The notes under the pieces were generated by a model that was given only the letters and a program-made list of their open reading frames with translations, was not told the origin of the DNA and ran no database searches. Made by a program: the position numbers and the translations under genes. This document shows, piece by piece, positions 13,052-15,418 of a stretch of DNA of 20,000 nt. The DNA comes from an uncultured virus (IMG/VR IMGVR_UViG_3300007754_000006) (taxonomy: Duplodnaviria > Heunggongvirae > Uroviricota > Caudoviricetes), in the IMG/VR virus record IMGVR_UViG_3300007754_000006; one strand, 5' to 3'. Numbering within the stretch: position 1 is the stretch's first letter; each line of letters opens with the position of its first letter.

Positions 13052-13193
13052 TTCCACAACCGGGCGAGTTGGTCAGCGAGGTTACGGCTTGCGCCGGCAC
13101 TCGGATTTGAACCGAGGACATTCCGCTTACGAGGCAGATGATCTATCCAACTGATCTATGCTTGTAGGCTGTACCAGGGGCTCGGTTGTGGAA
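13052..13193 (-). ncRNA. tRNA-Thr(CGU)-like core (13092-13165) with a broken acceptor stem, enclosed by the conserved module
   Basis: Intact D arm (GATC/GATC), anticodon arm TCTGC CT CGT AA GCGGA and T arm CTCGG TTCAAAT CCGAG. Acceptor ACAAGCA/TGCCGGC has 3 mismatches and no CCA. Ends pair TTCCACAACCGAGC/GCCCGGTTGTGGAA. Confidence 0.8.
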
Positions 13194-13502: not shown

Positions 13503-14222
13503 CTACCTTCTGGTAATGATCGCCACCAAAGCCCCTACAGGGAAGGCCAAAGTGAACAGGATATGTATGTGGAACGCGGCTACCGCAGTGACGGTAGCTA
13601 AGACTCCGATTGCCCCCCAAGACTTGTGATCGGAACCCAGGGTACTGAGGAAGGACAGCTCCAGGAGGTTCGAGTGGGTCATTACAGCACCCGCCGCTCC
13701 CATGAACACGTACAGGGGGAACTCTGACCGAGGACCCTTGTTGCTTCTGCTGAGGCTCTTCGTGATTAGGGTTGCGTCGACCAGAATGAGGGGAATCGTC
13801 ACCAGAACTCCCAGAGAGGCCACCGGGGGGAGGAGAGTCACCGTAGGGACCGCGACCCCCAAGATGAAGAGCTTCCCCCACTCCCCATTCAGAGCCATAA
13901 AGAGAGCCTCTTTTGCCATGGCCAAGGCCATACTTGCCAGGACAGGGATTGAGACCCCTGTGATCAGGACAGCGGCTCCCGGGGGGATGAACATGAATAT
14001 GAAGAAGACAGGAGTGAGGAAAACCAGAGCCACGCCTACGATGAGAACGTGGTGTACTTCTACTTCGTGGTTCTCTACCGCCATGAGCAGACCTACTGCG
14101 GTCGCCCCCATCCACCACAAGGACCCAAGGAACATGAAGATTCCCAGAGACCAGAAGGGGAACTCCAGAGGGGAGAACTCAACCCAAGCTCGCGCGAGAG
14201 CAATCAGGAGTTCCATTCCCAC
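13503..14222 (-). CDS. Polytopic membrane protein
   Basis: Many hydrophobic segments; GGAGG RBS. Confidence 0.75.
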   Translation of the reverse strand: MGMELLIALARAWVEFSPLEFPFWSLGIFMFLGSLWWMGATAVGLLMAVENHEVEVHHVLIVGVALVFLTPVFFIFMFIPPGAAVLITGVSIPVLASMALAMAKEALFMALNGEWGKLFILGVAVPTVTLLPPVASLGVLVTIPLILVDATLITKSLSRSNKGPRSEFPLYVFMGAAGAVMTHSNLLELSFLSTLGSDHKSWGAIGVLATVTAVAAFHIHILFTLAFPVGALVAIITRR

Positions 14223-14244
14223 CTCCGCTGCCTGTTACCTCTCC

Positions 14245-14279
14245 GAAAACGACGAAGCCCCGCTCGGAGGCGGGGCTTC
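14245..14279 (-). terminator. Probable intrinsic terminator of the RNA cluster
   Basis: GAAGCCCCGC CTCCGA GCGGGGCTTC (10-bp stem) followed by GTCGTTTTC, 8 nt after the last CCA. Confidence 0.7.
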
Positions 14280-14287
14280 AAAGTAGA

Positions 14288-14432
14288 TGGCGGGGAAGAG
14301 AGGAGTCGAACCTCTAAGCATGTAGGCTGGTGTCGGGGGCTGGCCTGGACAGGCCAGCGAGGGACTCAGCGAGAAGAGACTTTCGTCCCGGATTAATAGT
14401 CCGGTGGCAGATCCACACTGCCATTCTTCCCC
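14288..14432 (-). ncRNA. 145-nt tRNA-like RNA, anticodon ATT, 6-bp D stem, 72-nt variable region
   Basis: GGGGAAG/CTTCCCC-G-CCA; TGGCAG/CTGCCA; CCGGA CT ATT AA TCCGG; AGAGG TTCGACT CCTCT; insert at 14316-14387. Confidence 0.88.
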
Positions 14433-14520
14433 AGGGGGCGCTCGTCTCTCCGAGCCGTCACGTCTTTTGCTCTCCTTGAAGTGGGAGCAGGGAAGTACGA
14501 CGTTCCCCGGCCAGCCCCCT
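14433..14520 (-). ncRNA. manA-motif-like structured RNA
   Basis: Closing stem AGGGGGC/GCCCCCT, GCCGG, ACGTC/GACGT pseudoknot, CCACTT and GTGACGGCTCGGAGAGACGAGC. The manA resemblance is from memory, not from a covariance-model search. Confidence 0.55.
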
Positions 14521-14685
14521 AATCCACGCTACTGAGTTCGTGGGTAGTCGGGTGGGGCTTCACCTTGAGGGTCCGCTTCTCCGGCGAAACGCGCGGAGCG
14601 GGACAAGAGGACTCAGCCTCTCTTATCTCCCGAAGGAGACGTAGGGTTTGGACGTGCGAGTGGGGGAGCGAGAAACAACGCCTGT

Positions 14686-14761
14686 TGGCGCAAAAAACGG
14701 GAATCGAACCCGCGACATTTTGGGTGTGAACCAAATGCTCTTCCAACTGAGCTATTTTCGC
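14686..14761 (-). tRNA. tRNA-Val(CAC), flanked by the conserved module (full unit 14648-14795)
   Basis: GCGAAAA TA GCTC AGTTGGAA GAGC A TTTGG TT CAC AC CCAAA ATGTC GCGGG TTCGATT CCCGT TTTTTGC G CCA; 76 nt. Confidence 0.88.
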
Positions 14762-14957
14762 AGTGCTTGTAGGCTCCGTCCGGAGGCGCGTCCAAGAAGA
14801 AGGAGAGCACAGGGTTCGATACCTGCTGTTTGCTCACACCCCGAAGGGTGGACCCCCATCGCGCCGAGGGTGGGCACTCTCCATAGTCCCACCAGGTGCT
14901 CCGTGGCGGGTTCAACCATTGAGGAACGAACCGGCTGGAGCTACCTGGGGGATTATA

Positions 14958-15105
14958 TGGTGGGGAAGGAAGGACTCGAACCTTCAAGCGTGTAGGCTGA
15001 TGCCGGAGCTACCTGGGTTGATTCAGATAGCGAGTGGCGCAGCGAGAAGAGTCTTGCGACCCGGTTCCCAAAACCGGTGGCGGATCCATACCGCCATTCT
15101 TCCCC
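14958..15105 (-). ncRNA. 148-nt tRNA-like RNA, anticodon TGG (Pro), 6-bp D stem, 75-nt variable region
   Basis: GGGGAAG/CTTCCCC-A-CCA; TGGCGG/CCGCCA; CCGGT TT TGG GA ACCGG; GAAGG TTCGAGT CCTTC; insert at 14986-15060. Confidence 0.88.
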
Positions 15106-15184
15106 AAAGTGTTTTGAAAGAGCGTCGGGGCGTTTCCCGACTGACAAGAACTAATACCGGTTCTCGTCTGGAAAACCCCTCTTT

Positions 15185-15418
15185 TCAAGAAAGAGCGGCT
15201 TGGACGTAGCTGATGACGTCCCCAACTGTGAACAGGTTCTCGGCGTCCTCGTCCGAGATCTGGATCTTGAACTCGGTCTCGAGATTGATCGCCAGGTCAA
15301 CTCGGTCCAGGCTGTCCGCTCCAAGATCATCCACGAGATCCGCCCCTGGGGCTGCCTCCTCGGGGGCGACTCGGAGCAGGTGGGTGATCAGCTCTACGAC
15401 GCGGGACTCAATCTTCAC
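15185..15418 (-). CDS. acpP: Acyl carrier protein
   Basis: GTG at 15418 after GAGGGG; DDLGADSLD phosphopantetheine site, LETEFKIQISDEDAE, TVGDVISYV. Confidence 0.93.
   Translation of the reverse strand: MKIESRVVELITHLLRVAPEEAAPGADLVDDLGADSLDRVDLAINLETEFKIQISDEDAENLFTVGDVISYVQAALS

Follow-up and report, generated by a model that had tools for sequence, protein, structure and literature searches.

The subject of this report is a tRNA-like gene with a giant variable arm, here called copy B, at positions 14958..15105 on the minus strand of a 20,000-nucleotide (nt) stretch of DNA (the window) from the uncultured virus IMGVR_UViG_3300007754_000006 (IMG/VR; Caudoviricetes). The window corresponds to bases 3141-23140 of a 56.6-kb viral contig with a CheckV completeness of 31%; it is a fragment of a large phage, and a third giant tRNA copy (copy C) lies outside it. 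In minus-strand order, copy B is followed by an ordinary tRNA-Val(CAC) at 14686..14761 (ARAGORN; 68.7 bits in Rfam), by a paralogue of copy B at 14288..14432 (copy A) and, directly after copy A, by a terminator-like hairpin of 11 bp with a U-rich end at 14253..14280, all on the minus strand. The fold of copy B, selection on that fold, a family of homologues and a coupling of anticodon to acceptor marks within the family are established below.

Copy B is 148 nt long, with the anticodon UGG (Pro), discriminator A73 and an encoded CCA. It was delimited by sequence, fold, a score of 181.6 bits with the covariance model R1 (built from copies A and B) and the ARAGORN call of its trimmed form. The 5' strand of the acceptor stem, GGGGAAG (15099..15105), pairs with CUUCCCC at 14962-14968, with G1-C72 as the first pair, and all 7 pairs covary in the family. 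By sequence and fold, the D arm (15078..15096) has a 6-bp stem UGGCGG/CCGCCA and the loop UAUGGAU, preceded by A8 and A9, not U8. The anticodon arm (15061..15077) reads CCGGU-UUUGGGA-ACCGG, with UGG at 15068-15070 and with U33, G37 and A38; the 5-bp stem, 7-nt loop, U33 and purine 37 are those expected of a tRNA. The T arm GAAGG-UUCGAGU-CCUUC (14969..14985) is backed by sequence, fold, family pairs and blastn matches to the T arm/acceptor end of ordinary phage tRNAs. Its loop conforms to the tRNA pattern UUCRANY, and the 7-bp acceptor and 5-bp T stems give a 7/5 layout. A73 and the CCA occupy 14958..14961.

What sets copy B apart from tRNAs is the size of the variable region, 75 nt compared with 4-5 nt in class I or a single arm in class II. 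It begins with a small hairpin, GUC-GCAA-GAC (15051..15060), in which 3/3 pairs covary and which is missing in some subfamilies. A UCUUCUC linker follows, then a 48-nt long arm (14996..15043) recognized by fold and family covariation, and a single-stranded 10-nt tail, CUACACGCUU (14986..14995), which contains CUACAnGC. The long arm is made up of an outer helix GCUG/CAGC, a second helix GCC/GGC, an internal loop with a conserved CUCGC (15030-15034) and an inner 8-bp hairpin. In RNAfold, a cloverleaf with two extra hairpins was both the minimum free energy and the centroid structure of copy B (-61.6 kcal/mol, z -3.7, equalled by 1/200 shuffles), and the insert folded apart from the tRNA body. 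An alternative pairing of the acceptor 5' strand with the linker UCUUCUC was also considered and was ruled out, because the linker is constant among relatives that have other acceptor stems.

Copy A is 145 nt long, with the loop CUAUUAA (AUU, Asn-type, A34), G73 and CCA, by sequence and fold. An earlier note on this DNA, made from the sequence alone, had described copy B as a paralogue of copy A with an identical acceptor stem, with compensatory swaps in the D, anticodon and T stems and in the small hairpin, and with a loop changed to UU-UGG-GA with G37 and a discriminator changed to A73. Each of these statements was borne out on reading the sequence. Each of the 33 scored pairs is a standard pair in A and in B. 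Six of them differ at both bases and none at a single base, compared with 0-1 double changes and 36-55% paired positions when the partner was slid by 1-3 columns. The six double changes from A to B fall in the D stem (one, A-U to G-C), the anticodon stem (one, A-U to U-A), the T stem (two), the small hairpin (one, its middle pair, A-U to U-A) and the long arm (one, C-G to U-A). The sequence of the inner arm hairpin is entirely rebuilt between the copies and 8 bp are kept in both. Unpaired differences comprise 5/7 positions of the anticodon loop and one position each in the D loop, the T loop and the 10-nt tail. For copy A, an 8/4 acceptor/T alternative can also be drawn from the fold prediction. 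Copy C scored 98.9 bits with R1 and shows compensatory changes throughout; its loop is AUUUGGA, it has no encoded CCA, and its small hairpin is capped by UAAC, not by a GNRA loop.

The intact genes escape tRNA detection. ARAGORN called 0/51 members of the family when given intact sequences, copies A and B included, and in the 20-kb window it called three ordinary tRNAs and not copy B. Rfam reported nothing at the gathering score for copies A and B and no tRNA-clan family at E<=10. After the insert had been trimmed in silico to its last 5 nt, ARAGORN called 44/51 members, in 39/44 with the anticodon of the descriptor parse, and trimmed copy B was called as tRNA-Pro(tgg) and trimmed copy A as tRNA-Asn(att). 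With looser filters, the Rfam tRNA model (RF00005) matched three relatives end to end at 59.7, 42.5 and 40.5 bits (cut-off 29). Matches to Y RNA / YrlA (23.6-26.2 bits, cut-off 69) lay over ordinary tRNAs and this assignment was rejected; none of five phage records searched contains a TROVE (Ro60) gene, and a Ro60 supplied by the host is conceivable. No gene for a CCA-adding enzyme was found in the same five records.

Homologues were gathered by four kinds of scan with the conserved unpaired motifs, and the matches were then checked with R1 and a descriptor script. In viral contigs, two scans yielded 5 and 42 loci, a genome-collection scan 19 loci and a metagenome scan at least 106 loci. Family members were carried by 1/5 and 7/42 of the viral loci, by 2/19 of the genome loci (both contigs of metagenome-assembled genomes) and by 38 among the at least 106 metagenome loci listed. 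The script parsed at least 108 distinct strings; filtering for a length of 120-165 nt and for 7 acceptor pairs, no fewer than 6 being Watson-Crick, left 55, and 51 of these had a 5-bp/7-nt anticodon arm. Copy C, with its two G-U pairs, was lost to this filter, as were one relative whose acceptor stem is poor and all short matches, which were ordinary tRNAs, including two class II tRNA-Leu. Parsing relied on the script because a MAFFT alignment of 16 members was structurally unusable at the 5' end and R1-fitted alignments misplaced distant members; an R1 search of huge-phage records also missed members that cmsearch on the loci recovered. The result is at least 51 distinct homologues of 127-153 nt from huge-phage contigs and metagenomes. 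They are carried, among others, by contigs of 115, 147, 200, 363 and 529 kb and by G007, a phage of 436 kb that is complete and has terminal repeats. CUACAnGC served as the search anchor and is present in all members by construction. Other searches were negative within their scope: a first viral-contig pattern with both long-arm motifs at full stringency returned 0 contigs, and the acyl-carrier-protein neighbourhoods of 19 viral loci held no family member. Among GenBank phages, blastn with copy B matched only the T-arm/acceptor ends of ordinary tRNAs, blastn with the A-Val-B stretch matched over tRNA-Val only, and blastn with four tandem giant copies of G007 gave no match.

Across the family the variable region measures 58-81 nt (51 members). 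Every arm has an outer helix and an internal loop, with CUCGC present in 50/51. The inner hairpin begins with G-C and C-G pairs and is otherwise free to vary, often with GNRA or UUCG-type caps; a strict perfect-stem parse caught it in 32/51, with 23 different 5' strands among those 32. The tail YCUACAnGC lies 2 to ~12 nt ahead of the T stem. All 51 members fit the 7/5 descriptor, with which they were collected. The anticodon loop is kept at 7 nt, position 37 is a purine in 48/51, and CCA is encoded in 23/51. In 27 homologues aligned with R1, a fit that itself favours a high pairing score, 95.7% of cells were standard pairs, 30/33 pairs had double changes, and all acceptor and T stem pairs either covaried or were invariant G-C. 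The covariation score of this alignment was 0.711, compared with 0.08-0.12 when slid, and 0/500 shuffles reached it.

Giant tRNA genes sit within tRNA arrays, both on this contig and in G007, which has 49 ordinary and five giant tRNAs. Four of the giant copies stand in tandem in its main tRNA array (Phe GAA, Asn GUU, Gly UCC, Tyr AUA) and the fifth (CAU) lies elsewhere. YCUACAAGC occurs at eight sites in G007, five in giant tRNAs and three without a module around them, and the module co-diverges with its own tRNA body; on this sequence pattern the arm module is not dispersed as a free element. The tail motif was also considered as a general tRNA leader and rejected, as it lies upstream of 1/19 tRNAs of the contig and, in G007, in the giant tRNAs and three unrelated sites only. 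These patterns bear on the idea that copy B is a decayed tRNA gene or a selfish DNA insertion whose RNA has no role. It is consistent with the failure of tRNA finders on this gene, with a partial module outside any giant tRNA just upstream of tRNA-Val, and with the one relative that has a poor acceptor stem. Covariation in every helix, those of the insert included, a family spread over many phage contigs with conserved unpaired motifs, and a module that diverges along with its tRNA body and shows no scatter across a complete genome make it highly improbable. The claim of the earlier note that copy B is under structural selection and is no decayed pseudogene thus agrees with both the paralogue comparison and the covariation of 27 homologues.

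A different possibility is that the 75 nt are excised and the halves joined to give an ordinary tRNA-Pro of ~75 nt. The 44/51 members called as ordinary tRNAs after in-silico removal fit this idea, as does a gene for the RtcB ligase, which among the five records searched is present in G007 and partial in another (G008), but absent from a third (G009, 92% complete). The tRNA-intron endonuclease domain (tRNA_int_endo), however, was found in 0/5 phage records, three of them at least 90% complete, in a search whose control was positive in four archaea. No Rfam intron or ribozyme family matches the insert, no formal search for a bulge-helix-bulge having been made, and the insert folds separately from the would-be exons. 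The distance from tail to T stem also varies from 2 to ~12 nt and is therefore poorly compatible with a fixed cut site. Excision is considered quite unlikely; retention of the arm is favoured because of the separate fold, the variable T-stem distance, the lack of a matching intron or ribozyme family and of a splicing endonuclease, and the precedent of the V-Spinach tRNA described below.

The discriminators of the 51 members are A in 18, U in 14, G in 13 and C in 6. They were compared with the discriminators expected in bacteria, using a table mostly checked against Table 1 of PMC9976931. The discriminator agrees with the bacterial expectation for the anticodon in 34/51 members, against a shuffle mean of 15.8 (sd 3.1), and 0/10,000 shuffles reached as high a value. 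The earlier note had reasoned that independent variation of anticodon and discriminator among homologues would mean that the loop identity is not read; such independence is not what was found. Gly-type members have U73 in 8/8 cases, on seven different acceptor stems; A73 is present in 5/6 Tyr-type, G73 in 2/2 Asp-type and in 5/7 Asn-type, and C73 in 4/5 members with AUG (His-type). An additional G-1 occurs in 6/6 members with C73 and in 2/45 others, and G-1 with C73 is a bacterial tRNA-His identity mark (PMC9976931). On two scaffolds both elements changed as expected, namely GGGGAAG (the window copies) and GCCGGAC (Gly with U73, Asn with G73). Where a giant and an ordinary tRNA have the same anticodon, they have the discriminator in common in 3/3 cases in this phage and in 3/3 in G007. 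In this phage the loops of such pairs also agree, at 7/7 positions for Pro (UUUGGGA, A73; the ordinary tRNA-Pro(UGG) having been parsed by eye) and at 6/7 for both Asn (G73) and Gln (U73). The proposal of the earlier note that one scaffold was retargeted to different amino-acid identities is thus supported by structure, by the coupling of discriminator and anticodon and by the likeness to the ordinary tRNAs of the phage. As a separate observation, two metagenomic members, L133 and L125, have the His marks G-1 and C73 and the anticodon UUG (Gln), L133 being one wobble-base change away from its AUG relatives. Judged from their sequences, these tRNAs may read Gln codons while charged with histidine, or their loops may be in transit.

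The long arm could instead invite charging by a class II-type synthetase (for example SerRS), so that the wrong amino acid would be placed at Pro codons, as in allo-tRNAs. Those tRNAs are, like the present family, non-canonical and metagenomic; they have long variable arms, many anticodons on each scaffold and, in some cases, positions in phage tRNA clusters (Mukai et al., PMC5389517). Weak Rfam tRNA-Sec matches to three further relatives (33-34 bits, cut-off 47) point the same way. The defining feature of allo-tRNAs, however, is an 8/4 or 9/3 acceptor/T layout, and their discriminator is mostly G73 or U73, read as serine identity (PMC5389517), whereas the giant family has a 7/5 layout, an arm that is far larger and discriminators that track the anticodon and are not constantly G or U. 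G-1/C73 and the U73 of Gly-type members suggest cognate enzymes instead, and recoding of this kind is regarded as very unlikely.

Copy B itself agrees with the bacterial proline set in A73, G35, G36 and G37 and is the sole UGG member among the 51 homologues listed. The caution of the earlier note that it has G1-C72, not C1-G72, was right; in this phage the two ordinary tRNA-Pro genes have C1-G72. Table 1 of PMC9976931 names G72 among the bacterial determinants for proline and gives the archaeal set as G1-C72, G2-C71, G3-C70 and A73. Charging of copy B by a bacterial-type ProRS is uncertain because the G72 determinant is missing.

This missing determinant is one of several observations that weigh against copy B and its relatives being working tRNAs. 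Position 8 is A in both window copies, and among the 51 members it is A in 28 and U in 19; in the tRNA core, U8 pairs with A14. Only 31/51 have U33, and A34 occurs in 11/51 (anticodons AUU, AUA, AUG, ACC and AAG). All 6/6 Tyr-type members (GUA/AUA; L048, L053, L069, L178, L199 and L046), on six acceptor stems, have A, C or G in place of U33; U33 is kept in 7/7 Asn-type and 2/2 Asp-type members. From this distribution, the missing U33 of Tyr-type members looks selected. Four of the 55 candidates lack a 5-bp/7-nt anticodon arm, and at least one of these has an 8-nt loop. The homologues were collected by the conserved motifs themselves and include close relatives, and for this reason their counts are not counts of independent events. 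Discriminators are off the table in 17/51. Five of these misfits are Gln-type with A or C, for which the E. coli rule is the wrong yardstick because the ordinary tRNA-Gln has A73 in G007 and U73 in this phage. On the scaffold GGCGGAT the anticodon changed from Gly to Arg with U73 kept, and on GGCGAAG from His to Gln with C73 and G-1 kept. No RNA run was found for window 14200-15250; one run labelled as a metatranscriptome and three DNA runs gave no RNA coverage there and yielded only identical DNA contigs, perhaps those from which the window derives. The giant copies, finally, duplicate anticodons already covered by ordinary tRNAs of the phage.

Part of this list is what would be seen if copy B were a tRNA look-alike that does not decode but acts off the ribosome as a decoy, sponge or regulator, binding tRNA enzymes or host nucleases. 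This is the main rival explanation and is held to be unlikely. Redundancy with ordinary tRNAs of the same anticodon, the absence of U33 in 20/51 members (every Tyr-type member among them) and the frequent A8 speak for it, and host defences whose cut in tRNA-Tyr falls within its variable loop, together with phage tRNAs that counter them, have been published (PMC13096335; PMC11555353). Against it stand the 7-nt loop, the purine 37, the anticodon-matched discriminators and G-1, which are needs of charging and decoding, and the loop of copy B, which is fully ordinary for Pro, with U33 and G37.

The best explanation, with a probability of about 0.55, is that copy B is a genuine tRNA paralogue that can be charged and that keeps its arm, and that it represents a new structural class. 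Copy B would then be a working phage tRNA gene with a 7/5 cloverleaf and a long D stem, the variable region of which has been turned into a conserved module of 58-81 nt comprising an optional small hairpin, the long two-helix arm with its CUCGC loop and the CUACAnGC tail. It would be co-transcribed from the minus strand with tRNA-Val and copy A and then released like any tRNA, with the arm retained in the mature RNA. Proline would probably be attached by way of A73 and G35-G36-G37, and CCN codons would be read by copy B beside the ordinary tRNA-Pro(UGG). The family would have grown as copies were duplicated and then altered in anticodon loop and discriminator on a common scaffold. Plain codon supply fails to explain the giant copies, since their anticodons are already covered. 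That redundancy, together with the odd loop positions (A34, non-U33), prompts a guess at the use of the arm, namely that it makes a second tRNA set that is overlooked by host tRNA-cutting defences or that can be distinguished by a phage or host partner. A bolder version of the preferred explanation, put forward tentatively and as less than probable, is that very large phages carry a parallel, third-class tRNA set. The arm, with its CUCGC loop and CUACAAGC tail, would in that case be the handle for a dedicated partner, and the set would supply private, defence-proof charged tRNAs with deliberately altered A34 and position 33.

The surroundings of copy B are those of a phage tRNA array. Public sequencing runs containing the window stretch are marine. 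Reading frames around copy B match the phage families acyl carrier protein, deoxynucleoside kinase, dCMP deaminase and HNH endonuclease. ARAGORN called 19 tRNAs on the whole contig, one strand throughout, including tRNA-Pro(UGG), tRNA-Pro(GGG), tRNA-Gln(UUG) and an 85-nt tRNA-Asn(GUU). By its sequence and position, the hairpin at 14253..14280 is likely the end of a B - tRNA-Val - A transcript, which makes the three genes a putative operon. No sigma-70-like promoter was found in window 14150-15350, and the two long spacers flanking tRNA-Val have no tRNA-like fold (z -2.7 and -1.3).

Several other sequences near the giant copies were noted. The tail motif CCUACAAGC is present at window 14765-14773 (minus strand), 3 nt upstream of tRNA-Val(CAC) and preceded by a small hairpin, and a string resembling the 5' half of the arm (UCUCGCU...CACUCGC) lies at ~14640-14672 (minus strand), directly downstream of the same tRNA; this partial module may be what is left of a giant tRNA after recombination or decay. 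On the 3' side of copy B, window 14934-14949 holds a 16-nt repeat of the 3' strand of the copy B inner arm hairpin at 94% identity, possibly a duplication trace. The tRNA-Thr(CGU) at window 13091-13165 (minus strand) reached only 46.1 bits with the Rfam tRNA model and has several non-standard acceptor pairs. Outside the window in the same phage, the 85-nt tRNA-Asn(GUU) (L007:7895-7979, minus strand) has a variable-region hairpin, which is unusual for Asn, and was the top ordinary tRNA by model R1 (27.5 bits); from its structure it may stand midway between the ordinary and the giant-armed form. At L007:3102-3356 (minus strand) there is a match to a group I intron (Rfam RF00028, 57.9 bits, cut-off 50). 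In G007, two adjacent UCA tRNAs at 139122-139296 were labelled SeC by ARAGORN, which called no tRNA-Trp or tRNA-Tyr there, and the only Tyr-type gene is the giant copy with AUA; reassignment of UGA in G007 is possible on these gene calls.

The family was compared with known systems. Variable regions of tRNAs have 4-5 nt in class I, and in class II a single-hairpin arm in a region of at least 10 nt (PMC7609411). Class II tRNAs (bacterial Leu, Ser and Tyr) and tRNA-Sec resemble the family in adding a helical arm to the cloverleaf between the anticodon and T arms, and tRNA-Sec also in its long D stem with a small loop. Unlike class II tRNAs, the giant family has 58-81 nt in this region, folded into two or three helices and including unpaired motifs that are conserved, and its anticodons are mostly those of class I amino acids (Pro, Asn, Gln, Gly, His, Asp, Met and Trp). 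Its 7/5 layout differs from that of tRNA-Sec, which has an acceptor branch of 13 bp. An engineered E. coli tRNA with a Spinach aptamer still works in protein synthesis in live cells, the active fusion being the one in the V loop (V-Spinach; Masuda et al., PMC5397188). Like the family, it has a large folded RNA on a tRNA, but it is man-made, whereas the natural arm has a conserved sequence of its own and no known ligand.

The stable 139-nt T4 species 1 RNA (rnaC) is likewise a phage RNA of ~140 nt in a tRNA cluster with a tRNA-like T arm; unlike the giant family it has no anticodon arm in its predicted fold, and it has no known function. It was rejected as a relative, with 12.9 bits from R1 over part of rnaC, below T4 tRNA-Ser (23.1), T4 tRNA-Leu (19.2) and the listed family members (at least 31). 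Phage tRNAs with changed loop or variable-loop features have been proposed or shown to resist host tRNA-cutting defences (PMC10264068; PMC11555353; PMC13096335). Such resistance fits the redundancy and the A34/non-U33 features of the family, but those tRNAs are of normal size, and in the parts of those papers drawn on a giant arm is not described. A full-text literature search, judged from abstracts and passages, returned no description of phage tRNAs with such arms, and the giant-armed phage tRNAs are apparently a sizeable, undescribed class.

If these RNAs work, they would be natural tRNAs of about twice the textbook size with a whole extra folded domain, and ARAGORN and the Rfam cut-offs would undercount the tRNA sets of large phages. 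The arm would also be a ready natural site for tagging or for orthogonal tRNAs. The redundancy of the giant copies and their A34 and non-U33 loops bear on why phages carry tRNAs and on how they may evade tRNA-cutting defences. In the family, nature has turned a single tRNA body towards many amino acids; anticodon, discriminator and G-1 shift jointly, and the evolution of tRNA identity becomes directly testable.

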